Notes: generated from the letters alone by a model not told the origin. Shown: positions 1-18,154, numbered from the stretch's first letter. The stretch is 64,000 nt of DNA from Candidatus Wolfebacteria bacterium GW2011_GWB1_47_1 (GCA_001029635.1 CP011209.1:747969-811968); one strand, 5' to 3'. Numbers and translations are program-made.

Positions 1-574
1 CGAGTAAGGTAGATATTTTCTTTATAAGGCTTTCGACTACATTTGAAAATACGAGAATAGCCCAAAATGCTGCTACTGTTATAAAAACTATCGGTTTTTT
101 AGGATCAGCAAAATAGGAATATGTTGCTGAAATGTATACGACCGAAAACAGAAATCGGGCACTACCCGCATCTTTAACAAAAAGATAGAGTGCTTCATTT
201 ACTTTTCTTAGCCATTTTTTTTGAGTATCTTTTATTGTTATACATAAGATACTCACCAATAAAACTATTAGTGCGTAATAAAATATGGCTGTGTAGCCAA
301 GAAAAAGCTCTTTTTCTTTTAATCCGACCAACGCAATTATTACTGTCATTGCGTTAACAATCGCGTCTGACGGCTTCGTAAAATACGGTTCGACGATATA
401 TTTCCCCATTACAATCATTAGCGCAGCAGAAAAAAACCATATCGAGTAGTCTTTTATATTTATGCCAAAAACTGCATCAGCATTGCCTCCTATAAGATGA
501 TAGATCAGGGTTAATATACTTAAATATAGTATAGCGATAAATATTCTTTCTCTTTGTGTAAGATTAATCTTCAT
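1..574 (-). CDS. partial multi-pass membrane protein (C-terminus lies beyond window start)
   Basis: Manual translation of the minus strand from ATG at 574-572 runs without a stop to position 1. The product is hydrophobic. It is absent from the ORF track because it is truncated. Confidence 0.4.
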   Translation of the reverse strand, partial: MKINLTQRERIFIAILYLSILTLIYHLIGGNADAVFGINIKDYSIWFFSAALMIVMGKYIVEPYFTKPSDAIVNAMTVIIALVGLKEKELFLGYTAIFYYALIVLLVSILCITIKDTQKKWLRKVNEALYLFVKDAGSARFLFSVVYISATYSYFADPKKPIVFITVAAFWAILVFSNVVESLIKKISTLL

Positions 575-1205
575 AAACTTTTGAGGATTTATTAAGAATA
601 GCTTCGCGTCCTTCTCTCCTCATAATCGGTATCGCTATTAATAGATTTAAAGTAGCCACGATAACCGCTAAAATAATCAGCACTGCAAAGTTTATCCCCG
701 TAGTTAGCCACATAATCATAAGAGAAAGATAACTTATTATTGCCAAAAATATTCCCATTGCGGTTCCCGTACTATTAGCCGGCTCTTCCTTGGCCATATA
801 TGCAAGCGGTGCTAAGGCGACTGAATATCCCCAAAGCAACAATGGAATAGAACTACTACCACTTGCTTTATCTGTGAAATATACAAAAACTGCCATTACC
901 CAAACGATTATTATTGCATTTGAATATAGGAGATTAGCAAGAGCAAAGACAGAAGTCGCGATGCGATTATTTTTTTCTATGAAATATTTTATAGGCAGCA
1001 TAAATAACATCGTTGGAAGGGCGACGATCGAATATACAAAAGGCATCATTACTGAAATCAGTATTCCAAAAATAATATTTCCCCAATTCCCTATAATTGC
1101 CAACCAAATACCACTAATAATCCCGGAAAAATAGTTTAAAAATGTAATTACGACTAATAATACCCCCCAGACCGCCCCACCTGCTAATGCCAGCATTTTA
1201 TTCAT
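564..1205 (-). CDS. hypothetical polytopic membrane protein (213 aa)
   Basis: ORF track; several hydrophobic helices; part of an AT-rich co-directional gene string. Confidence 0.5.
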   Translation of the reverse strand: MNKMLALAGGAVWGVLLVVITFLNYFSGIISGIWLAIIGNWGNIIFGILISVMMPFVYSIVALPTMLFMLPIKYFIEKNNRIATSVFALANLLYSNAIIIVWVMAVFVYFTDKASGSSSIPLLLWGYSVALAPLAYMAKEEPANSTGTAMGIFLAIISYLSLMIMWLTTGINFAVLIILAVIVATLNLLIAIPIMRREGREAILNKSSKVYED

Positions 1206-1215
1206 ATGATCAAAA

Positions 1216-1530
1216 TTATTTATTTTTTAACTTTTTAGATCCTATGATATTTACCACAAAAACAATACCCGCGATAAGATCTAAATTTTGCCAAGTACCC
1301 CTTTCGAAAAAGAACGGAAATAATGGGTTAAATACCACCGCCATTATCCCGAATATCCACATCCACACATCCTGCTTCTTCTCCTTATAGATATATGCAT
1401 TATAGAGTGCCACACCGCAAACTACCCACCTTAAAATCTGGTAATAACTGTATGGGTGCGATCCAATTGCAAAAAATAGCATTAACGCGGCTATGATATT
1501 AATCCATTTATTTTTAAGTAAGTTTTGCAT
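1216..1530 (-). CDS. small membrane protein (104 aa)
   Basis: ORF track; 3 predicted TM helices; tightly packed with neighbours. Confidence 0.45.
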   Translation of the reverse strand: MQNLLKNKWINIIAALMLFFAIGSHPYSYYQILRWVVCGVALYNAYIYKEKKQDVWMWIFGIMAVVFNPLFPFFFERGTWQNLDLIAGIVFVVNIIGSKKLKNK

Positions 1531-1555
1531 ATTAAAAGCAACTTTTTCTTATTTT

Positions 1556-2260
1556 TTACTTATGATTACGTATGATTTCATCTACCTCATTAAATTCTTT
1601 CCATACTCCTTGGCATGAAGCAGAAAGATCGAATTCCGTTACTTTTGCGCTTGCTTTTTCTCGCAAGACCGCTTCCGAGCAATCAACTCTTTCGTAATCA
1701 TGATCATACAGACACGACGCTGGAGAATTAACATATGAGAGTGAGACACAAAAATTATAGTCGTGCTTTATTTTATTCTTTAATAGATTACAACTTCTCA
1801 TCTCTTCATTATACTTCTGTTCTATCACTGGGGATGCACATTCCCTTACTTTCTCCTTCAAGCTATCTATTTTCTGTAACGCCTGGATATAGGCGTTTTC
1901 CGTACTTATTCTTGCGTTATTATCTTTTATTGGCTCAATAATAACACCATAAACCAATGAGATGGCCATAAGAAATCCTATAGGCATCCCCAATAATGCA
2001 TAATGCTTTTTATTAAAACCAGCCATTAAAAATCTTTCACCTTTCAAAATATATAGGGTTGTCTTTGTCCCTAAAATTAAAAGTATATAGAAGAGGAGCA
2101 GGTATAGTGCAGCGTAAAAGAATACCTCACTCTGCGACCCGCCAAACCCATCTTCGCTTCCCATGCCAATAGCTATAGGTATGGCAATCAAAAATCCAAT
2201 AATAAGCACCACCTTTCCCAACCGATACAGCCAATCCAATTTTATTTCTCTCATATTCAT
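1556..2260 (-). CDS. membrane-anchored protein with Cys-rich C-terminal domain (234 aa)
   Basis: ORF track; two N-terminal TM helices, then a soluble domain with 6 Cys. Confidence 0.5.
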   Translation of the reverse strand: MNMREIKLDWLYRLGKVVLIIGFLIAIPIAIGMGSEDGFGGSQSEVFFYAALYLLLFYILLILGTKTTLYILKGERFLMAGFNKKHYALLGMPIGFLMAISLVYGVIIEPIKDNNARISTENAYIQALQKIDSLKEKVRECASPVIEQKYNEEMRSCNLLKNKIKHDYNFCVSLSYVNSPASCLYDHDYERVDCSEAVLREKASAKVTEFDLSASCQGVWKEFNEVDEIIRNHK

Positions 2261-2269
2261 AATTCTAAA

Positions 2270-2509
2270 TTACCACTTATAGGGATTTACATACCCTTTT
2301 TTCCCGGTATACGGATTATAATTTCCTTTTGTACTATAGTTATTGAATTTATACTTATCAGGACTGGTTTTGTAATAGGGCGCGACATAAGAGCTGCTCC
2401 GTGAGTTATAATAACCCTTGACTCGGACGGTCTTTGCTTCTGCTGAATTTATAAATATCAAAGAAAGTATGGTGATTAATGCGAAAATTGTAACGGAAAG
2501 TTTTTTCAT
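2270..2509 (-). CDS. small secreted Tyr/Asn/Lys-rich protein (79 aa)
   Basis: Signal-peptide-like N-terminus (MKKLSVTIFALITILSLIFINSAEA); repetitive YxxK/NPY composition. Confidence 0.45.
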   Translation of the reverse strand: MKKLSVTIFALITILSLIFINSAEAKTVRVKGYYNSRSSSYVAPYYKTSPDKYKFNNYSTKGNYNPYTGKKGYVNPYKW

Positions 2510-2519
2510 TAATTTATTT

Positions 2520-2807
2520 TTATTTACCTTGACGCAAGATATTTACATAATTCCTTAAACGATCGTACCTGTCTGCATAACCACCCCCGCATCCGCTGTT
2601 TTTAAATCCCCAATGATCCTCTTGCCAAATCACCCCCGTGTTAATGGCTCGGTTTCTATCATCTAAATAGACAACCTCAAAATCCCCTTCAATTTTTTTG
2701 AGCTCGGGAGCTGTGATAGCTCTACATACTACTGCTTGTTTTTTAATGATAGCATTTCCAACACTTATCCACTCCCCTGGCTGCAAATTTTTTAAATTTT
2801 CTGGCAT
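2520..2807 (-). CDS. hypothetical protein (~96 aa, start at MPENLKNL)
   Basis: ORF 2520..2870 trimmed to an internal ATG so that it does not overlap the downstream gene. Confidence 0.4.
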   Translation of the reverse strand: MPENLKNLQPGEWISVGNAIIKKQAVVCRAITAPELKKIEGDFEVVYLDDRNRAINTGVIWQEDHWGFKNSGCGGGYADRYDRLRNYVNILRQGK

Positions 2808-2829
2808 GGTTAATTTTATAAAAAGTGTC

Positions 2830-3291
2830 TTATTTAATATCCGGCAATAGCGTGTAAATATAATTTCCAATCAAGTTATTCCTCCCAAATTCTTTCTCCA
2901 ACCTACTAATCAGGTTTTCTCTAAACCAGTGGGGATTTTTATAATACGCTGTTTTTTCTTGCGCAATACGATCTTTAATCTTCTGCTCGGTATTTATGGT
3001 ATTTGTCGTATTTACTACTGGACTTGCCTTATACTCAGGCGCGGGCGTGGTATATCCAGTCCCATTTGCTCCATAAGTGCTCTTAATCGGCTCGATAGGC
3101 TGCGGAGCCGCCTTTGCATTATGACAATGATATTCTCCCGTACTTAAACCCCATGACGAGCAATTTGTTCGACAAGTATGACACCCGGAACTATCGGTCC
3201 TACCCGGATGCGCAAAAGAAACTACGGGGACCAATATCCCTATTAAACCCACCATAATTGCCGTTCGCTTCATTGCCATAAGTATGTTCAT
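2830..3291 (-). CDS. secreted Cys/His-rich protein
   Basis: Signal peptide MKRTAIMVGLIGILVPVVSFA followed by HPGRTDSSGCHTCRTNCSS...YHCH; probably metal-binding. Confidence 0.45.
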   Translation of the reverse strand: MNILMAMKRTAIMVGLIGILVPVVSFAHPGRTDSSGCHTCRTNCSSWGLSTGEYHCHNAKAAPQPIEPIKSTYGANGTGYTTPAPEYKASPVVNTTNTINTEQKIKDRIAQEKTAYYKNPHWFRENLISRLEKEFGRNNLIGNYIYTLLPDIK

Positions 3292-3413
3292 TAAATACCC
3301 TTTTGTAAACAATACCGGCCCACAAGCAGCAACCCGCTTGAAAACTCGGGCGAATAATTAACGACTTTAGATCTCTATCCCCAATGACCATATTACAACA
3401 CACCATTGATTTA

Positions 3414-3429
3414 TTGAAAAATTTTTCAA
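3414..3429. promoter_or_regulatory. perfect 16-bp palindrome ttgaaaaatttttcaa upstream of the secreted-protein operon
   Basis: Read directly from the sequence; candidate operator. Confidence 0.3.
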
Positions 3430-3517
3430 TCCCTGAAATAAAATATATTAGAACACACTTCTGATTAACTGAAAAATAAATCAGATTTTGAATATTTATT
3501 TATTACCAAACTTTGAC

Positions 3518-3775
3518 CTATCTAACCTCCAATAGGCCGCATCTCCTCATCTTATAGACATATTCCGGTATGCTTAACAATCTCTCATCTACAAACTTTT
3601 CCGTACAATTTTTATGGATTAGCGAGTCCTTATTCTTGTATTCTTCTCGAATACTCCTTACATACTCCCGCTCCCTATAAGATAGGGTTACATAAATAAT
3701 AGCCCCCACAAGGATCAAGAGCCCTATTAGTGAAATTCTATTGAAAACCTTTTCCTGTTGGTCTGGTTTTTCCAT
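3518..3775 (-). CDS. small membrane-anchored protein (85 aa)
   Basis: ORF track; one TM helix. Confidence 0.4.
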   Translation of the reverse strand: MEKPDQQEKVFNRISLIGLLILVGAIIYVTLSYREREYVRSIREEYKNKDSLIHKNCTEKFVDERLLSIPEYVYKMRRCGLLEVR

Positions 3776-3776
3776 T

Positions 3777-4202
3777 TTAGCGGAAAATTATATAGAGCCC
3801 AAAAATGAACGCATACCCCATTAACTCGTTAGCCTCCTCTTCATTCGGCCGGATCGTTTTATATATTCGGTTCACTTGATTGACCATATATAGCGCCACA
3901 ACTACTGGCAGTATCCTACCGGGTGCGTCAAACTTTACAATGATCAGTGTTAATAGAACTATATCACTAATGGCTCCACACGCCCCACTGGCGTAATCCC
4001 TGTAGCTCGCCTTCCCTTTACTTAACACGCCTCTGACTATGGAGTATAGCGCCATCTGCCCTACCATCCCTAATACAGACGACCAAAATAGCACAAAAAT
4101 TGCCCACCAAAATGGCAGTAGGAAAAATGGGGCGATGTATGCAATTAACCAAATGATCCGAAGTGAGTAGGTACGGATCACTAATTTATTAAATGCGTTC
4201 AT
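3777..4202 (-). CDS. membrane protein (141 aa)
   Basis: ORF track; 4 hydrophobic segments; stop abuts the next gene start. Confidence 0.45.
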   Translation of the reverse strand: MNAFNKLVIRTYSLRIIWLIAYIAPFFLLPFWWAIFVLFWSSVLGMVGQMALYSIVRGVLSKGKASYRDYASGACGAISDIVLLTLIIVKFDAPGRILPVVVALYMVNQVNRIYKTIRPNEEEANELMGYAFIFGLYIIFR

Positions 4203-4283
4203 TTTGGTTTTTAGGTTTTTAAACCTAAAATCTGGATTAATATATTAGGACACAAATCTAAAAAACTAAAAAATATATTCGTT

Positions 4284-4727
4284 TTATTTATTTTTTGTTA
4301 ACCTTATTTTTTCAACCTTATACGCTCTAAATGCCGTTCTTAGGAACAGGAACCATACAACCATTGCAACACCGGCGATCAATAAATTATCAGTAGATAT
4401 TGCCCCGCTCACCTTTGCCACCTTATCTAAATAAACAAATACATCCTTCACCGCCCATATAATCAAAACTATGGCCATTGTTAACGCCACTTTATTTCCC
4501 TTGTAGACAAAATACGCGGTAGATATATTTATAATCCCTGCGCTAAAAATATTAACCAGGGCCCTTTCAGATCCATCAATAAACAGGTATACGAATAAAT
4601 AAATTACGAATGGGGCAAGTAAAAATAACGCGGTTATTCCCCTATATGTTTTATATATAGGCAACGAACCGTACTTCTCTACCTGATCCCGCAAATAGTC
4701 CTTTGCAGGAATGGTTATGTCTTTCAT
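4284..4727 (-). CDS. membrane protein (start at MKDITIP)
   Basis: ORF 4284..4796 begins with TTG. The internal ATG at 4727 is the more plausible start. The product is hydrophobic. Confidence 0.45.
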   Translation of the reverse strand: MKDITIPAKDYLRDQVEKYGSLPIYKTYRGITALFLLAPFVIYLFVYLFIDGSERALVNIFSAGIINISTAYFVYKGNKVALTMAIVLIIWAVKDVFVYLDKVAKVSGAISTDNLLIAGVAMVVWFLFLRTAFRAYKVEKIRLTKNK

Positions 4728-4916
4728 ACTGTGGTGGGTTTTGCTGACCGGGAATGCATAAAGCTCCCCGCCAGCGATAGCCTTACGGCTACCCAAATCC
4801 CTTTCGAGATAAGACCCACCACAGGTGCTCTGACGAGGAGCTTAATGAACCTGTGGTGGGGGTTTTTGCCATATCTCGGGGATTTCCCAAGGGTTAGGCT
4901 ATGAAGTTATGCGTCT

Positions 4917-5693
4917 ATGGTATCACAGAAAACTGTATTTGTTAACAAAATGATATATAATTTTCGTATGTTAGCGTCGCCCGGAAATAACTCGTATTTA
5001 GACGAAGAGGAGGTTCTTTCGCTTTTGTCCACGAACCAATCATCCTCAAAACTTACCCCCTACATCGATCGTTTTATTAATAATACCCTCGCCTCTGATA
5101 CAGAAAATTATTACCTATTCGAGAGACAGAAAGAGAAAACATTATCAATTTTAAGGAAGGAGTCAAAAAAGTTTGGCGGCTCTTTTATTCTAAAATACCC
5201 ACGCGCCGATTTTGATAAGTCATATCTACCAATTCACTCCCTAATTGCTTTAAACTATCTCAAAGTAATCGACCTGCAAGAGATCTCAATTGATAAAGAT
5301 ATTTTTTCAGATCCCCTACACCTTTTCGATCAAACAATAGAAGCAAAAATAGTATTATCTGATGAAGTTATTTCTAATAAGCAGCCACTTAAACCAAAAT
5401 TCAGCTTCGCAGATGGGGTTTTACATTTTAAAAACAAAGATATTCTAATATCTAAAAGCTATACCAATCCTCGCAAACTCTTAGACATCATCCTAAATGA
5501 ACCTAATAAAACATGGGACTATAGTGAAATTTGGGAGGAGTGGGACGAATTAGAAAATTATAATCCTCTTAAACGGAATAGATTTTATAACGCCGCTTAT
5601 GATGTTAACCAAAAGGTGGGTATCGCGACCGATGTAAATGACTTTCTTGAATACACAACAAACGAAGTGAAGATTAACAAAAAATACCTTTGA
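4917..5693 (+). CDS. hypothetical protein (258 aa)
   Basis: ORF track; no recognisable motif. Confidence 0.45.
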   Translation: MVSQKTVFVNKMIYNFRMLASPGNNSYLDEEEVLSLLSTNQSSSKLTPYIDRFINNTLASDTENYYLFERQKEKTLSILRKESKKFGGSFILKYPRADFDKSYLPIHSLIALNYLKVIDLQEISIDKDIFSDPLHLFDQTIEAKIVLSDEVISNKQPLKPKFSFADGVLHFKNKDILISKSYTNPRKLLDIILNEPNKTWDYSEIWEEWDELENYNPLKRNRFYNAAYDVNQKVGIATDVNDFLEYTTNEVKINKKYL

Positions 5694-6180
5694 GTTAGTT
5701 TGCAAACTTTTGCAAACCACCTATTTGATACCGTTACTAAAAATAACGGTATTTTATGTTAACACCCGGACTCATTAACGAGTTTCAAAACATAATACAG
5801 AAAGAGTACGGCATCGCATTAAGCGATAGGGATGCCTCAGAAATCGCCAATAATTTGACCGGCTATTTTGACCTACTCGCTAAAATTCATCATCGAGATC
5901 AGACGAGCGCCGAGGCTCCTGATTTGATCCTCCCGAAGGGATCAAATCAGGGTCTTTGACCCCTTTTAAAATTATATCTAAGACTTGGCTGGTTTCGGGA
6001 ACTCCAAGGATAAAAAACACGGTTCCGGTAAAAACAAGTGTATTAGGGTTCTGATGCGAAAGCAGGGAAAACAAGTTGGCAACTCTTGCCCTGCCGTTGG
6101 ATCAGCGCCTTAATATAGCATTCGATTAGATATATACATACACCTAATCCAAACTTTTACTATCATCCAGGAGGTAAAAG

Positions 6181-6342
6181 TTGTTACCAACTATGAAAAA
6201 AATGAGTGGCGATAAGAAAGCACATATAGAAAAAGTTTTAATCCCCCAGAAAAGGATCAAACATAAGATGCTGATCAAGGGATTTAAGAAAAAAAGAGTT
6301 GACACAAAAGAAGCCATAAAACAGTTGCTTTCCATACAATAA
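6181..6342 (+). CDS. small Lys-rich basic protein (~53 aa), possible recombination directionality factor
   Basis: AGGAGG lies 6 nt before TTG 6181, with an in-frame ATG at 6193. Translation is MKKMSGDKKAHIEKVLIPQKRIKHKMLIKGFKKKRVDTKEAIKQLLSIQ. It sits immediately upstream of a serine recombinase. Confidence 0.25.
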   Translation: MLPTMKKMSGDKKAHIEKVLIPQKRIKHKMLIKGFKKKRVDTKEAIKQLLSIQ

Positions 6343-6394
6343 ATCATCCCCAATGTGCAGAAAAAATAAAAAAGGTTTACACTATCGTTAAAAT

Positions 6395-8044
6395 ATGAAA
6401 TCAATCATATACGCTCGCGTATCGTCAAAAGAACAGGAAGAAACTGGATACTCTCTCCCCTCGCAAGAGAAGCTTTTGCGGGATTACGCCGATCGAAAGG
6501 AGCTTGCCATCGCAAAGACTTTTTCTATTGCGGAGTCCGCAAGCGGGGTAAAACAGCGAAAAGTATTTGGCGAGATGATCAAGCTTGCAGAGAACAATAA
6601 GATAAACAATATACTATGTGAGAAGGTTGACCGACTCACTCGCAACCTAAAGGAGGCGGTTATGGTAAATGAATGGCTTGAGGAAGATGAGTTGCGGAAG
6701 ATCCATTTCGTGAAACAAAATCTAATCATCCATAAAAATGCTAAATCTGATGAGAAATTTCGATGGGATATCGAAATCATTCTTGCCAAAAAATATATTT
6801 CCAACCTTTCCGAGGAGGTAAAGAAGGGACAAAAGGAAAAGATAGCCCAAGGATGGCTCCCTACTGCCCCTGTAATGGGCTATAAGACGGTTGGCGATAA
6901 AGGACACAGGATCCATGTAATCGACCCTACTGCGGCGCCCGTAGCGCAGAAAATGTTCGAATTATATGCCACCGGCAATTTTTCCATATCAGTCATTACT
7001 TCGTTCGTTAAGGAGTCTGGAGTGAAAACGCGCGCCGGTCGACCAATAGTAAAAACCCGCATTCACCAACTCCTCTCCGATCCATTCTACTACGGGAAAA
7101 TTCAGTGGAACGATAAGCTATATCCGGGCAAGCATGACCCTCTTATCACTAAGGAATTATTTGATGAGGTTCAGCGAATGCTTAAGCGAGGGACCAAAGC
7201 CCCTGCCTATCAAAAGCACTTCCCTATCTTCAAGGGAAAGATCTTTTGCGGCGAATGTGGTGGCACCATCACTTGGGAGGTGCAAAAGGGTCATTGGTAC
7301 GGCCACTGCAACCACTATAAGCCGTGTGCTCAAAAGAAATACACAAAACAGGGATCTGTCGAGGACCAGCTCTTTGCTTATTTTTCCGAAGTAGCGCCTA
7401 AGAATGAGCAAGTACTTCAATGGCTTGAAAAGGCCCTTAAAGCAGACCACAGAAGCGAAATAGACTATCGCACATCTGCCAAAGATAATCTACTCCGTGA
7501 TCTTGAGCGCATTGAGAAGCGTTTCGAGGGCTTATATGATGACAAGCTCGACGGCAAGATACTCCCCGCTTTCTACGAACGCAAGGCAGCGGAATTTACA
7601 GAGCAAAAAGAAACGCTTGTACAACAACTCGCAAACTTGAATAAAAGCCAAGATGAATATTATGAAGCCGGGTATGCCATTCACGAGCTGGCGCTAAAAT
7701 CCCGGTCGATCTATTCAAGCCCACATGCAACTACCGAGGAGAAGAGATTGCTTTTGAGTTATATATTTTCGAACATCACGATAAAGGATGGTGAAATCAA
7801 GCCAGAATACACTTCGGCCTTCGAATTTATGTCCAAGTGGATGCCGATCGTAAATAACACTTTCGAACTCGAAAATGTCGGCATCAATACTAACGAAAAA
7901 GGCACTTTCGTGCCTTCTCGTACTATTTTGCTCCGCACTATGGACGAGTTTAGAACTCTTAACTGGTCCTCTATTGAAAACGAACTTAGGTTTAGCGGTA
8001 TCTTAAGCTTTTTCCCAAGTGCCATTATTCAGAACCAATTTTGA
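6395..8044 (+). CDS. large serine recombinase (resolvase/invertase N-domain, recombinase domain and zinc ribbon)
   Basis: N-terminus YARVSSKEQ with catalytic Ser; VDRLTRN; CGECGG...CNHYKPC zinc ribbon; 549 aa. Confidence 0.85.
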   Translation: MKSIIYARVSSKEQEETGYSLPSQEKLLRDYADRKELAIAKTFSIAESASGVKQRKVFGEMIKLAENNKINNILCEKVDRLTRNLKEAVMVNEWLEEDELRKIHFVKQNLIIHKNAKSDEKFRWDIEIILAKKYISNLSEEVKKGQKEKIAQGWLPTAPVMGYKTVGDKGHRIHVIDPTAAPVAQKMFELYATGNFSISVITSFVKESGVKTRAGRPIVKTRIHQLLSDPFYYGKIQWNDKLYPGKHDPLITKELFDEVQRMLKRGTKAPAYQKHFPIFKGKIFCGECGGTITWEVQKGHWYGHCNHYKPCAQKKYTKQGSVEDQLFAYFSEVAPKNEQVLQWLEKALKADHRSEIDYRTSAKDNLLRDLERIEKRFEGLYDDKLDGKILPAFYERKAAEFTEQKETLVQQLANLNKSQDEYYEAGYAIHELALKSRSIYSSPHATTEEKRLLLSYIFSNITIKDGEIKPEYTSAFEFMSKWMPIVNNTFELENVGINTNEKGTFVPSRTILLRTMDEFRTLNWSSIENELRFSGILSFFPSAIIQNQF

Positions 8045-8045
8045 A

Positions 8046-8849: not shown

Positions 8850-8889
8850 ATGTTTGAATTATATTCCGCTGTAAAGTAAAGTAAAGAGT

Positions 8890-10449: not shown

Positions 10450-10516
10450 ATTTGTCTTAAGTTAACTCAAGACAACATATCGATAACCTGTAGGCATAAC
10501 CTACGGGTTATTTCTT

Positions 10517-10714
10517 ATGCAGGAAGTTGCCGTCGAAAATGAAGTTAGAAAAGGCTTCAAAATAAATGATTTATCTCTTGAGGAAAGGCAAAGACTGGTC
10601 GGTGCTTTTGCGTGGCTCATAGAACAAGACAAGAAGCAAAATCCTGCACTTTATCAACCTAAAAAACAAGACGAAGATGATAGATACAATATGCCTTCTG
10701 ATACCCAAGAATAG
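10517..10714 (+). CDS. small acidic hypothetical protein (65 aa)
   Basis: ORF track; preceded by the hairpin aacctgtaggcataacctacgggtt. Confidence 0.3.
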   Translation: MQEVAVENEVRKGFKINDLSLEERQRLVGAFAWLIEQDKKQNPALYQPKKQDEDDRYNMPSDTQE

Positions 10715-11819
10715 GATGACTTATCTATTAGGGCCATCCAGTTGGGAACTATATTCCAAGACGGACCAATACGAAAAATATGTTCGCAACCCCAGCAAGA
10801 CAGAAAAAGAAACAGGACAATACTTCCCACGACTAACTGGATACAAGCGACGCTTTGCCCAAGATGCGAATGTTCGCATAGAGCTGTCCGTCCCCAAATT
10901 GCTGTATCGCAATAATCTCGACGAACTTGAAGAAAAAGACTTTCCGCGAGTAATCGAGATACTACTAAGGAGACTTGAGACTATGGGAGTGGTAGTTGAT
11001 AAGTCAGTTCTTGAAAATGCCTCAGTAAGCTCAGTTCATTTTTCAAAGAACATTCTACTCCAAGACGGGTATACCGCAAACCATTTAATCTCCGAAATGA
11101 ATAAGGTAAACCTTAAAAAGAACTTCGATTTTGCCAAAACAAGATTTATGAATGATGGGCAGAGCCTCTATGCCCATACAACCTCTCATCAGCTTGTAAT
11201 ATACGACAAGATAGCCGATATGGGGAAAGATGCGAAGAGAGCAATGGATAAAGACCAGACCTCGCGCCAAAAAAGTCTATTCGCAGAGTTAAGTAAAGCG
11301 AGCGAGCAACTGGAAATTATACGCTTTGAAATCCGCCTCAACCACAAGCAGAAAATGAACAAACTCCTTGAGAACTTAGGGTACGAGAAAAACCCAGTTT
11401 TCAGGCAGGTATTCAATACCAAAATGAGCAAAACCGTTGTTGCGCATTACTGGGAAAAACTTATCAAAGAGCGCAATTTGGGCATTTTCTCAATATCGCT
11501 AAGTATTAAGGATGTACTTCGAACTTTATTCTTAGCGGATAAAACACTAAAACCCAAACAGGCTATATATCTTCTCGGACTTTTTATGCTTGCAAAGGAC
11601 GAAGGTGGACTAAGGCAACTGCGGACTATTGTTTCAAAAAGGTCTCGCGATAGGACTTGGTATCGCATCGCACAAGATATGCAACAAGCCAGCAAGCTAA
11701 TTACAAAAAATAAGCTCCGAGATTGGGTTACGCAGATTGACAAAAGCCTTGATGAATATGTGCCATATAAGCATAAAAAATCAGCTATTATTAGTCCTCT
11801 GCCCCACTACTTAGCATAG
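10677..11819 (+). CDS. hypothetical protein (380 aa), possibly a replication or mobilisation protein of the element
   Basis: ORF track; an alternative start at 10716 (MTYLLGP) would avoid overlap; the functional guess rests on context only. Confidence 0.5.
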   Translation: MIDTICLLIPKNRMTYLLGPSSWELYSKTDQYEKYVRNPSKTEKETGQYFPRLTGYKRRFAQDANVRIELSVPKLLYRNNLDELEEKDFPRVIEILLRRLETMGVVVDKSVLENASVSSVHFSKNILLQDGYTANHLISEMNKVNLKKNFDFAKTRFMNDGQSLYAHTTSHQLVIYDKIADMGKDAKRAMDKDQTSRQKSLFAELSKASEQLEIIRFEIRLNHKQKMNKLLENLGYEKNPVFRQVFNTKMSKTVVAHYWEKLIKERNLGIFSISLSIKDVLRTLFLADKTLKPKQAIYLLGLFMLAKDEGGLRQLRTIVSKRSRDRTWYRIAQDMQQASKLITKNKLRDWVTQIDKSLDEYVPYKHKKSAIISPLPHYLA

Positions 11820-12228
11820 TGCTACTCCATAAATGGTCCCAAATATAAACATTACAAAATAAATTATTATGAAAAATAAAAAGTATAAAATCGATAAGGA
11901 CGAACGACTTGTTGGAATTATAAAAATGGCCTTTGAGCAGTATTATCGCAAGGTTATCTCGGATAATATAAAGAGGTCTTTGGCGCAAAAGCGAGCCAAG
12001 TTGTCCACTAACCCTAAAGTTGCTCTGTAAAGTAATGTAAAGTATAATGAATACCATTATGGAGCCTGAGGAACTCCCAAATGAGAAGGTTAATCGGCGT
12101 ATGGCTATTTTGTTTTGGACATTATCAGTCTGCGCCTTTATGATTATATTTCAGTTAGCAAATCTTATGGTCCCCGAATTATTTCCTCCGTCTTCTATCG
12201 CTCAATCAATATAAGCAGCTGCAACATT

Positions 12229-12411
12229 ATGAACACTAACAAAAAGAACTTCTACAAAGCAGAAGACCTCGCGAAGTTATTAGAGGTAAACATTATGACG
12301 ATTTACCGATATATTAAGGCTGGTCGCTTAAAGGCGTATAAAATTGGTCGTGAGTTTCGAATTGATAAAATTGAGTTTAGTGCTTTTTTAGAAAAAGCGC
12401 GGACTAAATAA
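12229..12411 (+). CDS. excisionase-family HTH DNA-binding protein
   Basis: IMTIYRYIKAGRLKAYKIGREFRIDKIEFSAFLE matches the excisionase/MerR-type HTH. The ORF track entry starts further upstream, at 12115. Confidence 0.65.
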   Translation: MNTNKKNFYKAEDLAKLLEVNIMTIYRYIKAGRLKAYKIGREFRIDKIEFSAFLEKARTK

Positions 12412-12413
12412 AT

Positions 12414-14207
12414 ATGACCGAAAAAGAATTATCACAACAAAAAGAAAGTCGCATCATCAAACTTGAGAAGGAAATTGAAAGATGGAAAAAGGCGGTCAAA
12501 ACCCAGCGCTACGGTTTAGTATGGCTCGATGTGCCTGAAGCATTTGAAGACGATGTCGAAAATAAATTACCCATTCTTGAGGAAGTGCCTAAAAAGGCGA
12601 TAAGGAGTAAGGATGCCAAGCCAACTCATCTACTTATTGAAGGCGATAATTATCACGCGCTTACTTGTTTAAACTACACGCACAAGGGAAAGATTGATGT
12701 AATCTATATAGACCCCCCGTACAATACTGGCTCCGATGGTTTTAGATATAAAGACAAGAGGATATTAAAAGAGTATCCAGACGGTACGGAAGTCCCGAAA
12801 GACCATCCATTTAGGCACAGCTATTGGCTATCTTTTATGAGTAAAAGGTTGGAACTTGCAAAAAGCCTACTAAAAGATACTGGTACTATATTTATTTCGA
12901 TAAATGAAGATGAGTTTGCGCAGCTCAAGTTACTTTGCGACCAAACATTTGGATTAGAAAATTATCTAACAATGTTCACTATTAAGGTAAGACACGAGGA
13001 GCGCATCCTTAAAGGCGATAAAGATTTCCACGAAGTCGTGGAATATCTTTTAATGTATAGATGCTCTTCTGCCTATAAAACCACGAAGAAAATCTATGAT
13101 AATACTTCATTGGATGAATATATTTATCAAGTCATTGAAAAAATAGAGCACCCTAAATCTGTTAAGCTTGGCAATAAGATGGTTGATTATTTTGAGCCAT
13201 CAGAATATGAGATTATAAAGGTGCCAGCGAGTGAGCACAACTTAAAGAAAATAAATATCCGTGGTTCTCTAAAAGAGGGCAATAGTAGTGGTAGATTTTA
13301 TATGGCTCATATTGCTTCAAGAGGTACCAAAGGTGTGCTTTATAAGGTACCAGATATGGGCAATGACAAGTTTGGACATAGATATTTTCTAATACCCGCA
13401 AAAGAAAGCAGGCTAAATGGGGATTATTTTCAGGGGGTACCACTGGACATACAGGACACGAAGAAAGTCCCCTACCCTAACTATTTTGACTTTGAAGCAC
13501 AGTTTAATAGCGTTGGGTATGAGGGGGGTGTCAGTTTCGGGGGCGGCAAAAAGCCAGTCGAGTTTCTTGCGCATTTTATAAATATCGGTTGTACGGATAA
13601 AAATGCAACTATATTAGATTTTTTTGCTGGCTCGGGAAGCACTGGGCACGCAGTTATGCAAATGAATGAAGCCGATAAGGGCAAGAGACAATTTATTTTG
13701 ATTACAAATGATAACGAAATCGTCAAAGATAAAGTTTATCATCCAATGTCTGAGGCGTGCCTGCCACGAATGCAGAACTTGATTAAAGGCTATGACAAGA
13801 ACCCGAGCTTGGGAAACTCAATTAAATACTACAAAACAGCTTTTGTAGGCAAACATAACATTCTTGATGCTGACGACAAAGATAAAATACAGCTCGCCCA
13901 TAATGCAGGGGGTATGCTTGCGATAGCTGAGAATACCTTAGAGCAAATTAAGGGAAACGATTATTGGCAGATTTTTGAAAGTGAGACCAGAATGACTGCT
14001 GTATATTTTAGAGAAGAGCAAGACCAGCTCGATGATTTTATAGACGAAGTCCTATTACTTGGAAAGCCAGTAACCGTATATATGTTTAGCTGGGAAGAAA
14101 AAGTGGATATTGTTGATTTTGAAGAAAATCGAAATATCAGCCTCAAAACAATACCGCAACCCATTCTTGAGATATATAAGCAGATATATAACATTGCTCA
14201 GTTATGA
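12414..14207 (+). CDS. mod: Type III R-M DNA methyltransferase (Mod, beta-class N6-adenine/N4-cytosine MTase)
   Basis: Motif IV IYIDPPYNTG precedes motif I FFAGSGSTGH (beta order), with a TRD between them. The stop overlaps the res start (ATGA). Confidence 0.8.
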   Translation: MTEKELSQQKESRIIKLEKEIERWKKAVKTQRYGLVWLDVPEAFEDDVENKLPILEEVPKKAIRSKDAKPTHLLIEGDNYHALTCLNYTHKGKIDVIYIDPPYNTGSDGFRYKDKRILKEYPDGTEVPKDHPFRHSYWLSFMSKRLELAKSLLKDTGTIFISINEDEFAQLKLLCDQTFGLENYLTMFTIKVRHEERILKGDKDFHEVVEYLLMYRCSSAYKTTKKIYDNTSLDEYIYQVIEKIEHPKSVKLGNKMVDYFEPSEYEIIKVPASEHNLKKINIRGSLKEGNSSGRFYMAHIASRGTKGVLYKVPDMGNDKFGHRYFLIPAKESRLNGDYFQGVPLDIQDTKKVPYPNYFDFEAQFNSVGYEGGVSFGGGKKPVEFLAHFINIGCTDKNATILDFFAGSGSTGHAVMQMNEADKGKRQFILITNDNEIVKDKVYHPMSEACLPRMQNLIKGYDKNPSLGNSIKYYKTAFVGKHNILDADDKDKIQLAHNAGGMLAIAENTLEQIKGNDYWQIFESETRMTAVYFREEQDQLDDFIDEVLLLGKPVTVYMFSWEEKVDIVDFEENRNISLKTIPQPILEIYKQIYNIAQL

Positions 14208-16579
14208 ACATATTCAACCCATCAAAATTTCAAAAAGATGCCGTCATAAATCTAACAGAGATTTTTACTACGGTATGGAAGCAACAAGGTAGACAATTAC
14301 CTATTGTTTTTAAATCCCCGACTGGAAGTGGTAAGACTTTTATGACCTCCCTTTTCATCCGCGGCCTTAACCACCTACCACAGTGGAAAGAAGATAAAGC
14401 ATTTATATGGATTACTTTTAGCGATGATTTGGCTATGCAAAGCAAAAATAAGTTTCTTGAGTATTTTGAAAATATGCTTGAAAATAGAGCTTTGACCGTT
14501 GCAGATATAAATCAAGGCAAACTCTACCAAAATGATATTTTATTTTTAAACTGGCAAAAGGTTACTGCCAAAAATGCTAATACGCGATTAATTCGCCGCC
14601 CCGAAGATAAGGAATGGCAAAAGGAACAGGGAGAATACTTTGAAGATGTGGTCGAACAAACTCAAGCCGATAGTAGACAAATTATCTTAATAATTGATGA
14701 GGCTCACAAGAATAAAGACACAAAACTCGCAAAGGATATTATTGATAAAATTGACCCTAAGGTAATTCTTCACATTACTGCGACACCAAACGAGAAAGAC
14801 GAACTTGAAGCTCGTCGTATTGGCAGTTTTTATGAGGTCCCCCGAGAGGAAGTTGTTGAGCAGGGCTTAATCAAAGAAGCAATCATTACTCAAACGGAAG
14901 AAGATTTCGAGGGTATGTCGGGAAAAGACCTTGATAAAATCCTCCTCGAAAATGGGATGAAAAAACGAGAGGAATTAAAAGCAGAACTTAAATCACTGGG
15001 TAAGAATATAAACCCTTTGATGCTTATACAGTTACCAAATGATGATGATAAACTTATAGAAAAGGGCGAACAGAAGAAGGAGGATATCGTTACTGATTAT
15101 CTTCTTAAAAATAAGGTTCCCGAGCATAGGATAGCAAAATGGTTTAATAAGAACCCTCGGCCAAATAATTTAGAAGAGCTCAGCGATGAGCACGACTTTT
15201 TACTCTTTAAACAGGCGGCTGGAACAGGCTGGGATTGCCCTCGTGCATCAGTACTTGTAATGTTTAGGGAAATACAATCGAATACCTTTTATACTCAAAC
15301 CGTTGGGCGTATTTTAAGAATGCCTGAGCCTCACGCAAAAGAAGATTATAAAAATAACCCCAATCTTCGCTTGGGATATTTATATACGAACTACAAGCGC
15401 AAGGAGGTAATAATACCAGACCAAAATCCCGCCAATCAACCTTTGACTGAGTTTGCCCATAGGAAGAAGGACATAAGCAATATCGAATTACCATCTGACT
15501 ATATTTCTCGCTTAGATTATGGCGATATTCGCGTATCTTCTAAATTTCAAGAAGTATTTAAAACAGAACTAAATAAGCACTTCGGGATTACTAATAATGA
15601 TATTCTTGGAAAAGCAGAAACGAAGCTTAAAAAGGCAGGGTTGGACATTAGCGATACTTTAGTAAATGAAGTTATTGCAAATGCTCGTTTCGAGGATTAT
15701 GACAATCTCGCCTTTGATTTCAGTAAAAAAGGCAGCGATATTTCACTTGAAATGTCAGTAAGTGATATTGAAAAGACTTTTAATTATCTTTGTTATCAAA
15801 TCCTAAGGGAGCAGGAAGACGAGGGAGCTAAGTACTCAAATGTGGCTCGCTCTTGGTCAGTCTTAAAACAAGCGCTTCGCGTCTGGTTTAAAATCGTTTT
15901 GCGAGATGACCATATTTACTGGTATAAGATATTTATCAAAGATGTTCGCAAGGGCGCTGAGAGCAAATTTCGCCCAGCAATAACAAGGGCCTTACGAGCT
16001 TATAAGCCAATTTCTGACAGTCTACTAACCGACAAGAAAATAAAGGTAGAGGAAAAGGAAGCATATATTTTTACCATACAAGGCGAATATGGGTATCCCG
16101 AGCAATACAAAGTTGTCCCTCAGAAGTTATGCGCCTTGGATAAGTTTTACTTGCCCGAAGATTACAATGGGCGTAAAAATGAAATTGCCTTTGTTGAATA
16201 TCTGGAAAAAAAGAAAGGAAAAATTGATTGGTGGTTTAAAAATGGCAATCAGGGAAAGAAGTACTTGGGCGTTAAATACACAAACTCAATAACGAACGAG
16301 GATGGCTTATTTTACCCCGACTGGATTATTCGTTTTCCTGATGGCCGTATAGGTATTTTCGATACCAAAAAAGGAGATACTGCTACAAGCACTGAAACAG
16401 CAGATAAGACAAAGGCATTGCAACAAAAACTTAAGAGTTTTGGAAAAAAGTTTCTTGGCGGTATCGCATATCAAGAAGCGGGCATTTGGTACTACAATGA
16501 TAGCCCCAAATACTCTTTTAAAGAGGGGCAATCGGTAAACGATAGCAAAGAATGGAAGCCTTTTGAGGATTTATTCTAA
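14204..16579 (+). CDS. res: Type III restriction enzyme Res subunit (SF2 helicase plus PD-DxK nuclease)
   Basis: Walker A SPTGSGKT; DEAH box LIIDEAHKN; motif VI TQTVGRILR; C-terminal PDW...IGIFDTKKG nuclease motif. Confidence 0.75.
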   Translation: MNIFNPSKFQKDAVINLTEIFTTVWKQQGRQLPIVFKSPTGSGKTFMTSLFIRGLNHLPQWKEDKAFIWITFSDDLAMQSKNKFLEYFENMLENRALTVADINQGKLYQNDILFLNWQKVTAKNANTRLIRRPEDKEWQKEQGEYFEDVVEQTQADSRQIILIIDEAHKNKDTKLAKDIIDKIDPKVILHITATPNEKDELEARRIGSFYEVPREEVVEQGLIKEAIITQTEEDFEGMSGKDLDKILLENGMKKREELKAELKSLGKNINPLMLIQLPNDDDKLIEKGEQKKEDIVTDYLLKNKVPEHRIAKWFNKNPRPNNLEELSDEHDFLLFKQAAGTGWDCPRASVLVMFREIQSNTFYTQTVGRILRMPEPHAKEDYKNNPNLRLGYLYTNYKRKEVIIPDQNPANQPLTEFAHRKKDISNIELPSDYISRLDYGDIRVSSKFQEVFKTELNKHFGITNNDILGKAETKLKKAGLDISDTLVNEVIANARFEDYDNLAFDFSKKGSDISLEMSVSDIEKTFNYLCYQILREQEDEGAKYSNVARSWSVLKQALRVWFKIVLRDDHIYWYKIFIKDVRKGAESKFRPAITRALRAYKPISDSLLTDKKIKVEEKEAYIFTIQGEYGYPEQYKVVPQKLCALDKFYLPEDYNGRKNEIAFVEYLEKKKGKIDWWFKNGNQGKKYLGVKYTNSITNEDGLFYPDWIIRFPDGRIGIFDTKKGDTATSTETADKTKALQQKLKSFGKKFLGGIAYQEAGIWYYNDSPKYSFKEGQSVNDSKEWKPFEDLF

Positions 16580-16584
16580 ACATT

Positions 16585-18120
16585 ATGAAAGCAATAATCG
16601 TCGCACGAGTATCAACTGAAGAACAAAGAGAAGCTGGTAATTCCCTACCCGCTCAGCTTACTCGTATGCAAGATTATTGCGAGCGGAATGGCTATTCTAT
16701 AATCGAGACTTTTAGTTTTGATGAGAGTGCTTACAAAACCAAGCGCGACGAGTTCGATAAAATCATTGCCTGCGTAAACGGCACAAAAGAAAAGGTTGCC
16801 GTTTGCTTTGATAAAGTAGACCGCCTATCACGCAATATCTTTGATAAGCGGGTTGCCTTACTTTACGAGCGAGCTGTTGATGATAAAATCGAGCTTCATT
16901 TTGTCTCCGATAACCAAGTCATCAACAATAAAATGTCGGCTGGCGACAAGTTTGCGTTCGGAATGAAACTCGGGTTGTCTAAATACTATTCGGATGCAAT
17001 CAGCGATAATGTAAAACGCGCGTTTGAGCAAAAGCGCAGAAATGGCGAATGGACCAGTGCCGTTCGATTGGGATATCTTAATGTTTCCTTAGATGCAGAA
17101 CAGCGGTTACGCAAGGATATTATCATAGACCCCGAGCGAGGGCATCTTATTCAAAAACTATTTGAGCTATATGCAACTGGGAACTACTCACTTGAGACGC
17201 TACGAATAAAAATGATTGAAATGGGCTTAGTGAGCCAAAAGGGTTTCAAGCCGTCAAAAAGCTGTATCGATAATATACTAAATGACACTTTTTACTGCGG
17301 TGTCGCTATGTCAAAGAAATATGGCTCTTTCCCCCATAGATACCCTCGTCTAATAACAAGGGAACTTTTTGATAGGTGCCAAGAGATACGCTTAAATCGC
17401 GTCAAAATGCCCAATAAGGCGCTTTCCAAGGACTTTATATTCAAAGGGTTACTCCGATGTCAGAACTGCGGTTGTTCAATAAGCGCCGAGAGAAAGATAA
17501 AGAAAAGTGGCCGTGAGTTTGTCTACTATTCCTGCACTAATGGCAAAGGTATATGCAAACGGGTGTATATACCCGAAAAAGACCTTCTAAGGCCCGTGTA
17601 CGAGGTTTTAGAGCGGTTTGAGAGCATAACAGAAGAGACACAAAATGAGCTTGTCGCCGAGCTTCGTAAGAATACGGAGGCCGAGGTAGTATTTCACAAG
17701 GCTCAGATAAACCGCATACGAGGCGAATACGAACAGATTAAGACGAAAGATGACCGACTACTTGAGGCATATTTGGACCAGTGTATTACTAAGGACATCT
17801 ATGACAAAAAACATCAAGAGTATGCGGATAAGCTACAGGTTTTGAATATTGAACTTTCCGAGTATACAAAAGCGGACCACGATTACCAAACGACTATTGC
17901 TACCGTGCTTTCTGTCGCTCGCAGAGCAAAGACTATATTTGAGAAAAGTTCTGAAGTTGCAGGAAAACGGGCGTTTCTGAATTACATACTTCAGAACCCG
18001 ACTGTAAACGAAAAAACGCTTGGTTTTACCTTGCGTTCTCCGTTCAACTTAGTCCTAAAACTTGCTGATTGTCCTAACTTGCTCCCCGGGAGGGATTCGA
18101 ACCCCCGACCATCTCGTTAA
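16585..18120 (+). CDS. large serine recombinase (paralog of 6395..8044)
   Basis: VARVSTEEQ catalytic Ser; VDRLSRN; CQNCGC...CTNGKGIC zinc ribbon. The last 13 codons are encoded by the tRNA-Asn 3' half. Confidence 0.85.
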   Translation: MKAIIVARVSTEEQREAGNSLPAQLTRMQDYCERNGYSIIETFSFDESAYKTKRDEFDKIIACVNGTKEKVAVCFDKVDRLSRNIFDKRVALLYERAVDDKIELHFVSDNQVINNKMSAGDKFAFGMKLGLSKYYSDAISDNVKRAFEQKRRNGEWTSAVRLGYLNVSLDAEQRLRKDIIIDPERGHLIQKLFELYATGNYSLETLRIKMIEMGLVSQKGFKPSKSCIDNILNDTFYCGVAMSKKYGSFPHRYPRLITRELFDRCQEIRLNRVKMPNKALSKDFIFKGLLRCQNCGCSISAERKIKKSGREFVYYSCTNGKGICKRVYIPEKDLLRPVYEVLERFESITEETQNELVAELRKNTEAEVVFHKAQINRIRGEYEQIKTKDDRLLEAYLDQCITKDIYDKKHQEYADKLQVLNIELSEYTKADHDYQTTIATVLSVARRAKTIFEKSSEVAGKRAFLNYILQNPTVNEKTLGFTLRSPFNLVLKLADCPNLLPGRDSNPRPSR

Positions 18121-18154
18121 CAGCGAGCCGCTCTACCACTGAGCTACCAGGGAA
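18082..18154 (-). tRNA. tRNA-Asn (GTT)
   Basis: Reverse complement TCCCTGGTAGCTCAGTGGTAGAGCGGCTCGCTGTTAACGAGATGGTCGGGGGTTCGAATCCCTCCCGGGGAG folds as a cloverleaf with a GTT anticodon and a GTTCGAATC T-loop. Confidence 0.85.

Follow-up and report, generated by a model that had tools for sequence, protein, structure and literature searches.

Two tandem plasmid-like elements at a tRNA-Asn gene of Candidatus Wolfebacteria, with serine integrase genes that very probably contain their own attachment sites

The window analysed here is a stretch of 64,000 nucleotides from the genome of Candidatus Wolfebacteria bacterium GW2011_GWB1_47_1 (GCA_001029635.1, CP011209.1:747969-811968), the left 18 kb of which reaches to a gene for an asparagine transfer RNA, tRNA-Asn(GTT). 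This left part is very probably most of a 21,131-bp insertion composed of two integrative plasmid-like elements in head-to-tail order, each put in by its own large serine integrase, and in both element families the attachment site of the free element (attP) would lie inside the open reading frame (ORF) of the integrase itself. By alignment to the unoccupied site (attB) of a sister species, the insert sits between the 3′ end of tRNA-Asn and the tRNA's own terminator. Element A extends from -3046 to 7933 (10,980 bp), its left end lying about 3.05 kb beyond the window in a region that was read from the source contig (L074) and is given in negative coordinates; element B extends from 7934 to 18084 (10,151 bp). 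An earlier note on this DNA had proposed an integrated mobile region at tRNA-Asn with an attachment core overlapping the 3′ end of the integrase gene, and both proposals are borne out, a sister genome carrying the empty site. It had also offered a choice between a left boundary outside the window and two tandem elements, and both hold (the outer edge is near -3050 and there are two elements). The junction is not at 5700-6390 as suggested there, an interval that is the intergenic region upstream of the element A integrase gene, LSR1, and that was rejected in favour of 7928-7934, within the 3′ end of the LSR1 ORF.

The integration target, tRNA-Asn(GTT), is on the minus strand at 18081-18153 by ARAGORN and at 18082-18153 by Rfam (66 bits), one base away from the earlier placement at 18082-18154, and it is intact and intron-free in the window. 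The composition step described at this gene is real, the GC content being 0.384 in positions 1-7933 and 0.382 in 7934-18080 and rising to 0.488 in 18154-64000, a change from 0.38 to 0.49. The integrase of element B in its integrated form, LSR2 (16585-18120, plus strand, 511 residues), stops 40 nt inside the tRNA gene. Residues 1-499 are encoded by the element, and the remaining 12 sense codons and the stop (LPGRDSNPRPSR and stop, 18082-18120) are antisense to the acceptor and T arm, in agreement with the claim that the last 13 codons of this recombinase come from the 3′ half of the tRNA.

Three attachment (att) sites can be located at this insertion. The attR core, TTGCTCC (18079-18085, plus strand), takes in the discriminator and the final acceptor-stem bases of the tRNA together with the next three bases outside it. 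The same 7-mer recurs at 7928-7934 (plus strand), the junction between A and B, where the left flank is the integrase of A and the right flank is a tail segment of the B family; this hybrid site joins the P arm of A to the P′ arm of B. At the outer left end a GCTC core at -3050 to -3047 stands just before a detached tail of the A type, with the host terminator hairpin to the left of the core. GCTC is thus common to all att sites of the locus and TTGCTCC to both sites within the window. A copy of the tRNA 3′ segment had been expected to mark the far end, and the window has none: no second copy of the tRNA 3′ 24-mer was found in it at up to three mismatches, only GCTC or TTGCTCC being shared, and general repeat finding in the window gave only chance-level matches. 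A shared core of only 4-7 bp, with no displaced duplicate of the tRNA 3′ end at the distal boundary, is what is expected of a serine integrase. The reconstructed junction sequences are ...GATTGTCCTAACTTGCTCCGCACTATGGACGAG... for attP_B, ...CTCGTACTATTTTGCTCGAATATCAGGACGCG... for attP_A and ...GTATTTTTGCTTTCTGCTCCCCGGGAGGGATTCG... for the fully empty attB.

The empty counterpart of this locus was sought in relatives, as the earlier note had advised, and is present in a sister species, though not in the same strain. Two sister Wolfebacteria were found through homologues of HisRS (76% identity), and the upstream order GreA-AspRS-DnaG-RpoD-AlaRS-HisRS is kept. Their tRNA-Asn exons are 100% identical to those of the window, but the gene is interrupted by a group I intron in both sisters. 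In the unoccupied loci (L090-L092; related loci are cited by such numbers throughout) the 3′ end of tRNA-Asn is followed directly by the terminator hairpin and flank, which are 77% identical over 77 nt to the DNA left of the element A tail at -3050. The sequences of attB, attL_A, the A/B hybrid and attR_B align on GCTC with the expected exchange of arms; the left arm of the sister attB matches attL_A, and its right arm equals attR_B over 33 nt, up to the point of intron insertion. The group I intron of the tRNA-Asn region lies at 12225-12489 in L087 and at 12435-12656 in L090, and the window copy has none. Repeated 17-19-nt copies of the tRNA-Asn 3′ end occur downstream of the tRNA in L087 (12704-12722, 12920-12936 and 13812-13828) and L088 (12793-12809), in one of the two sister genomes, adjoining an integrase-less island with NYN, RhuM and methyltransferase/RE_MjaI genes, and these repeats may be scars of other integrations at the same tRNA.

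A free form of a related element was reached through a homologue of the 380-residue protein of element B. One 7,628-bp molecule is represented by six independent contigs, which were obtained with different assemblers from different samples and are circularly permuted relative to one another; four of the six have terminal overlaps (127, 72, 30 and 30 bp). Besides a few unknown proteins, the circle encodes a Rep protein of the 380-residue type, an HTH_17 protein, a methyltransferase and an integrase of 546 residues with a full tail; its core, TGGCTCC, is located in the integrase ORF, with 34-36 codons still to come before the stop. Since the 546-residue integrase runs through the core into a full tail, the integrase ORF contains attP, and the tail is cut off from it on integration. 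The search for excised circles proposed in the earlier note gave a mixed outcome, a circle of the same family having been assembled six times and none for elements A or B of the window.

By domain architecture, both integrases are predicted to be large serine recombinases. The LSR1 ORF (6395-8044, plus strand) encodes 549 residues with the same three domains as LSR2 (Resolvase, Recombinase and Zn_ribbon_recom in Pfam). PF00239 matches with E values of 3.7e-20 for LSR2 and 1.9e-19 for LSR1, PF07508 is found in both, and PF13408 has a cut-off of 25.3 bits, which LSR2 exceeds (31.8 bits) and LSR1 does not reach (22.6 bits). The catalytic domain of LSR2 matches the TP901-1 integrase; R8, V9 and S10 are invariant in the integrase alignment, as are the zinc-ribbon cysteine columns C291, C294 and C316. 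An AlphaFold 2 model of the full-length integrase (predicted local distance difference test score, pLDDT, 80) has a helical hairpin formed by residues 349-396 and 402-427, with a coiled-coil tip near residue 400, and folds the tail into three short helices with moderate confidence. The domain order, a Resolvase domain with the RVS serine, a Recombinase domain and a zinc ribbon with an inserted coiled coil, is that of phiC31, Bxb1, TP901-1, A118, TnpX and CcrAB. LSR1 and LSR2 are 29% identical, not about 35% as had been estimated, and rather than the paralogues for which they had been taken they belong to two different element families, each with its own tail type. The body of LSR1 through the core, the element A integrase proper (6395-7933, plus strand), is 45-50% identical to the integrases of L067 and L025, whose reading frames enter tRNA-Asn at the corresponding point.

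The overlap of LSR2 with the tRNA is a property of a whole family. There are about 2,000 LSR2 homologues, the closest 120 clusters being 69-79% identical, and they are conserved up to ...SPFNLVLELADSPNWL, after which there are three kinds of ending: read-through into tRNA-antisense sequence (e.g. ..DSNLRPI..), termination within four codons (inside the tRNA in those loci that were checked), and a tail of 34-36 residues (about 14 of the 120). Scanning species-representative genomes with LSR2 gave 69 loci, almost all labelled Patescibacteria and two labelled as metagenome-assembled genomes of Gammaproteobacteria. In about 20 of the 69, a full-length integrase gene with downstream DNA overlaps the 3′ end of an opposite-strand tRNA, mostly Asn(GTT), also His(GTG) and Gln(CTG/TTG); with the integrase ORF ending inside a tRNA in some 20 independent genomes, the overlap is not due to chance. 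The closest clade, about 70-80% identical and mostly from Patescibacteria, targets tRNA-Asn, tRNA-His and tRNA-Gln, and more distant relatives of unassigned taxonomy have the same tRNA-antisense endings. Transfer-messenger RNA or class II tRNA genes were considered for several loci seemingly without a tRNA and set aside, at least L026 and L034 having a group I intron there (L026 11543-11823, L034 11536-11852), at the 3′ end of the integrase gene, which reads through the 3′ exon into the intron. Intron-split tRNA genes have been reported in Patescibacteria (PMC13011429), and these two loci are consistent with that report. Comparison of hosts that share 40% identity in DnaG and 56-58% in RpoD gives identities of 74-81% for integrase and Rep, and that the element proteins are far closer than the host markers is consistent with horizontal spread.

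The fate of the tail can be followed across these loci. The tail of the LSR2 family has the form PLVDKFRTxNWxxIKSELQFSGILxLFPxLxLQN (34-36 residues). Thirty-seven copies share a common frame, most ending in LQN and a stop, with conservation of 0.71, 0.76 and 0.58 at codon positions 1, 2 and 3; because position 3 is less conserved than positions 1 and 2, the segment is maintained as coding sequence. Tail-like coding segments are found in most of the 69 loci. In 13 loci with a full- or near-full-length integrase abutting the tRNA, a detached tail is encoded by the same strand at the other end of the element, 6.2-10.5 kb away from the junction with the tRNA, and is not joined to any integrase body. 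In these 13 loci attL and attR share 4-10 bp only, and the shared junction core differs with the target: GCTC(C) at tRNA-Asn, TGGGGT at tRNA-His and GCTG at tRNA-Gln. In L007, L012, L020, L023 and L027 the attR site has an element-supplied TGG (an encoded CCA) and attL has TTG, CTG or GTG; in the window TTG stands in both. From this difference between attL and attR we infer that exchange occurs within GCTC and that the element supplies the encoded CCA, so that integration in these five loci would turn a tRNA gene lacking an encoded CCA into one that has it.

Within the window the only tail copy is the detached C-terminal tail of the element B integrase (7934-8044, plus strand, RTMDEFRTLNWSSIENELRFSGILSFFPSAIIQNQF and stop), which is fused in frame to LSR1. 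The tail that LSR1 has at present is 60-67% identical to LSR2-family tails, as against 29% for the LSR1 and LSR2 bodies. Long proteins of the LSR1 family and the left end of element A itself carry another tail type, ending in LLALV (e.g. P0241), and the A-type detached tail (EYQDAFRTFDWVGAFPDPGITLRQINGLLALV and stop) is found at about -3046 on L074, preceded by GCTC and a terminator-like hairpin. The genomic context of P0241, the best LSR1-family protein with its natural tail, is limited to a 3.6-kb contig and is uninformative. Proteins of the LSR1 family have the same variable tRNA-antisense endings as those of the LSR2 family. By these comparisons the tail that LSR1 now carries belongs to element B and is foreign to LSR1. 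The corresponding tandem junction in L023 is not in frame, which argues that fusions of the LSR1 type, including the in-frame fusion of LSR1 to the element B tail, are by-products of tandem insertion.

Two further observations concern the 3′ part of the integrase gene. In about 20 loci among L041-L066, all that is present of an LSR2-type integrase is its last ~110 codons (e.g. L045 8633-8953, L046 5851-6222, L054 1759-2070 and 5898-6209), with unrelated DNA upstream. The similarity sets in abruptly at residue 401 (ITKDIYDKKHQEY), where the predicted coiled coil has its tip. Several remnants have a partner tail 1-3.6 kb upstream, with unrelated cargo in between, like miniature non-autonomous elements. 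In 27 aligned full-length genes, integrase codons 451-510 (17935-18117) have a third-position conservation of 0.75-0.77, compared with about 0.6 elsewhere. The conserved stretch is longer than an attP arm, which suggests an additional cis-acting element, possibly a Rep origin.

Element B has the gene content of the LSR2-type elements, in which the integrase, the 380-residue protein (present in 26 loci at 74-82% identity) and the HTH_17 protein (in 31 loci) form the backbone, the remainder being variable cargo. The earlier note had seen an HTH gene, a Type III restriction-modification (R-M) pair and unknown genes between the two recombinases, and this stands except that one of the unknowns resembles a Rep_trans-type initiator. 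That gene (10677-11819, plus strand, 380 residues) encodes a putative rolling-circle initiator or relaxase, with a match to PF02486 that is below the cut-off (18.0 against 29.6 bits, E 0.0022). The HTH_17 gene, most likely 12229-12411 (plus strand), encodes a small protein of excisionase/MerR type (PF12728, E 3e-12; PHROG excisionase families); it occurs also in the free circle and in the 31 related loci, and its product is a candidate regulator or directionality factor. The cargo consists of the Mod subunit of the Type III R-M system (12414-14207, plus strand; N6_N4 methyltransferase, PF01555, E 1.8e-29) and the Res subunit (14204-16579, plus strand; ResIII helicase type, PF04851, E 5e-20), the genes of which overlap by 4 nt. 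In an element at tRNA-Gln (L018 5833-9994), Mod and Res together are 85-88% identical to those of the window and Mod is 88% identical, and L011 (7621-9993) has Res only, 83% identical; the integrases of L018 and L011 are only 68-73% identical to LSR2. That the R-M genes are closer than the integrases indicates an exchange of cargo between elements with different tRNA targets. Three further ORFs of element B are without Pfam or PHROG match: a 267-residue protein of unassigned function (8046-8849, minus strand), which has homologues of 58-68% identity beside the tail in L007 and L023; a 519-residue protein, likewise unassigned (8890-10449, plus strand), which has homologues in L020 and L014 and whose C-terminal part is matched, in L023 and L025, by sequence immediately upstream of Rep; and a 65-residue ORF overlapping the start of Rep (10517-10714, plus strand), which is called as a gene in L001-L003 and has a 55-residue counterpart at the same place in the free circle.

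Element A is different in content, and no homologous backbone for it was found in the 69 related loci. A 767-residue membrane-anchored HerA/FtsK-like ATPase (DUF87; PF01935, E 4.5e-9; PHROG terminase-like ATPases) is encoded on the minus strand with only the 3′ part of its gene in the window (1-574, the gene, which starts outside, extending leftwards to -1729). It is followed by eight small minus-strand ORFs between 564 and 4796, mostly for predicted membrane proteins (564-1205, 1216-1530, 1556-2260, 2520-2870, 2830-3312, 3518-3775, 3777-4202 and 4284-4796); only the second, DUF6804, has a Pfam match, and the eight have no PHROG match and no homologue in the 69 loci. The ATPase and these ORFs may constitute a module for DNA translocation or transfer. 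A full-length LOOT RNA motif (Rfam RF03000; 4776-4900, minus strand; 74.4 bits against a gathering score of 46.4) sits between the divergent ORFs 4284-4796 (minus strand) and 4917-5693 (plus strand). The latter encodes a 258-residue protein with 26-30% identity to translated sequences of L007, L014 and L035 (tblastn), and ORFs like it adjoin Rep, upstream, in other elements. The C-terminal 60 or so residues of this protein and of the 519-residue protein of element B are alike as judged by eye (..YNAxY....DF...T...VKI..KYL), and the common region may be a DNA-binding module.

We propose the following mechanism. The attP site lies inside the integrase ORF, 34-36 codons ahead of its stop, and strand exchange would take place within the GCTC of the discriminator and acceptor end of the tRNA. 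Integration leaves the integrase body abutting the tRNA, reading a few codons antisense to it, and moves the last ~35 codons to the opposite end of the element. A motif of the type TTCGAAC follows GCTC at +12 to +18 in the tRNA arm, being there the T-arm sequence itself, and at +17 to +23 in both P′ arms, that of A and that of B. It is characteristic of large serine integrase sites that the motif bound by the zinc-ribbon domain is 5 bp further out in attP than in attB, as reported in the work on the A118/LI integrase and its DNA. The integrase may accordingly recognise TTCGAAC of the T arm, which in the tRNA arm is 5 bp nearer to the core than its counterparts in the P′ arms, and a T arm as the recognised feature would explain the use of several tRNAs. 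After excision the circle would replicate or transfer by a rolling-circle mechanism, and the exchange of one C-terminus for another may alter the activity of the integrase between the free and the integrated state.

Several points weigh against this interpretation. In the strain itself there is no empty site and no excised circle, the array being present in 24 of 24 contigs with an identical HisRS (18263-19618), contigs that are 100% identical to the window and come from Candidatus Wolfebacteria GW2011_GWA1_47_6 and related groundwater assemblies. The reconstructed attB, searched as an exact 28-mer and as a gapped pattern, had no match in JGI metagenome contigs, and the attP junction of B had none in IMG/VR viral contigs. 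The empty site belongs to a sister species, its flank is homologous over only about 77 nt, and the genes beyond differ. The strand-exchange position within GCTC comes from sequence comparison only. Dyad symmetry of attP is weak (best centre in a scan, 0.40 complementarity), and the positions of the motifs were therefore relied on instead. Formation of the tandem requires that one integrase used a half-site that is no natural attB arm. The assignment of the 380-residue protein as a Rep_trans-like initiator is an inference from a medium-confidence model (pLDDT 65) together with the sub-cut-off Pfam score, and a state-dependent change of activity or stability as the role of the tail is a hypothesis.

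These points have to be set against what other explanations can accommodate. The whole region could be read as a single composite island with two paralogous recombinases, the second an internal duplicate or accessory resolvase, and one left boundary outside the window; the co-orientation of the recombinases, the uniform GC content of 0.38 and the lack of any empty or half-occupied site in this strain would suit such an island. It would not, however, predict an internal att core with a B-family tail at 7928-8044 or a tail of a different type belonging to A at -3046, and elsewhere LSR2-type elements end exactly at the tail, at 6-10.5 kb, the free circle has one integrase only, and LSR1-type integrases occur alone at tRNA-Asn (L067). 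We consider a single island improbable. If instead the recombinase were a fixed, domesticated chromosomal gene of the Candidate Phyla Radiation (CPR), overlapping the tRNA through genome compaction with nothing mobile about it, then its presence in all 24 contigs of the species examined, the recurrence of the arrangement across many Patescibacteria and the lack of junction sequences in metagenome and viral contigs would follow readily. The unoccupied site in the sister species and the circular 7.6-kb form are hard to reconcile with such a gene, as are the variation of targets (tRNA-Asn, -His and -Gln) and of cargo and the much greater likeness of element proteins than of DnaG or RpoD between hosts, and coding-type conservation of a detached tail makes sense only if the tail is periodically rejoined to the integrase gene. 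A domesticated gene is thus very improbable, and we give similarly little credence to one or two small temperate prophages with serine integrases like those of phiC31 and Bxb1. Serine integrases and small excisionase-like HTH_17 proteins are indeed typical of temperate phages, and the ATPase of A has weak PHROG matches to large terminase subunits; but these matches are limited to the P-loop ATPase region of a membrane-anchored protein of HerA/FtsK type, no capsid, portal, tail or lysis family of the PHROGs is found in A or B, elements of this kind measure merely 6-11 kb, and their conserved backbone includes a Rep_trans-like initiator. Two tandem integrative elements, each inserted by its own integrase, remain by far the most probable origin of the region.

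The elements share features with several known systems and coincide with none of them. As with the large serine integrases of phages and integrative and conjugative elements, few att bases are shared, no long direct repeat flanks the insert, and the motif lies 5 bp further from the centre in the attP arms than in the attB arm; unlike those systems, the present elements target the very 3′ terminus of tRNA genes and have attP in the integrase ORF, so that the C-terminus of the protein differs between the free and the integrated form. Insertion at a tRNA 3′ end that leaves the tRNA functional, tandem arrays and cargo of R-M type are likewise features of P4-like islands and of actinomycete integrative and conjugative elements (AICEs) of the pSAM2 type. 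Those elements use tyrosine integrases and duplicate tens of tRNA 3′ bases, whereas here the core is 4-7 bp and the element contributes at most the CCA-equivalent bases. In the mycobacteriophages BPs, Brujita and Charlie (clusters G, N and P), Broussard and colleagues reportedly described in 2013 an attP in the 3′ end of an ORF, with integration altering the C-terminus and properties of the product. In that integration-dependent immunity it is the repressor gene that is altered, by an integrase of the tyrosine type, whereas here the affected gene is the serine integrase itself. Small integrative mobilizable elements of Firmicutes likewise combine a serine recombinase with an initiator or relaxase of the Rep_trans family (PMC5704250, PMC5357655); the present elements differ in their CPR hosts, their tRNA 3′-end target and the location of attP in the integrase gene, and are not closely related to them in sequence.

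The nearest likeness in mechanism is to the suicidal tyrosine integrases of SSV1, pTN3 and pT26-2, which also have the recombination site in their own gene, are partitioned on integration into a tRNA gene and form a compact module of att site and integrase (PMC8371274). The same review of archaeal tyrosine recombinases describes recombinases that break up the gene encoding them as exclusive to archaea (PMC8371274). The SSV-type enzymes are tyrosine recombinases (Phage_integr_3) whose gene is divided into two halves, Int(N) and Int(C), neither of them functional, whereas the present ones are serine recombinases that lose only the last 34-36 codons, keep all recognised domains intact and have the tail replaced by a few tRNA-encoded residues. 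A bolder and rather doubtful proposal is that the elements are the bacterial serine-recombinase counterpart of the archaeal suicidal integrases, a full-length form with a helical tail of 34-36 residues being made from the free circle only and a tail-less, tRNA-tagged form from the integrated copy only. The two forms would then set directionality or stability, the enzyme being competent for integration when free and quiescent or biased towards excision when integrated; the choice of target would depend on reading of the near-universal T-arm sequence TTCGAAC at attB spacing, which would account for hops between tRNA-Asn, tRNA-His and tRNA-Gln across Patescibacteria; and the miniature derivatives, which keep the last ~110 integrase codons and the tail round unrelated cargo, would be non-autonomous cassettes mobilised in trans.

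In the literature that could be searched we came upon no account of this CPR family, nor of any serine integrase whose ORF contains attP, which is not proof that none exists. In a survey by Mageeney et al. (2020), use of a t(m)RNA gene by serine integrases was noted as previously unreported, with 14 of 297 candidate cases for which proof was asked (PMC7192596). Here a whole clade systematically targets tRNA genes, the integrated copies being complemented by an empty site and a free circle, and an attP inside the recombinase's own gene would be a case of this arrangement among serine recombinases, in bacteria. As regards annotation, the C-termini of such integrases are partly host-encoded, and tandem arrays yield chimeric ORFs such as LSR1. 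The two forms of the integrase provide a concrete hypothesis for how the state of integration could feed back on integrase activity. The elements are small, apparently self-replicating and self-integrating, and native to CPR/Patescibacteria, hosts that are very hard to manipulate genetically, and an integrase that reads a conserved feature of tRNAs would be a candidate for the construction of integration vectors in Patescibacteria.

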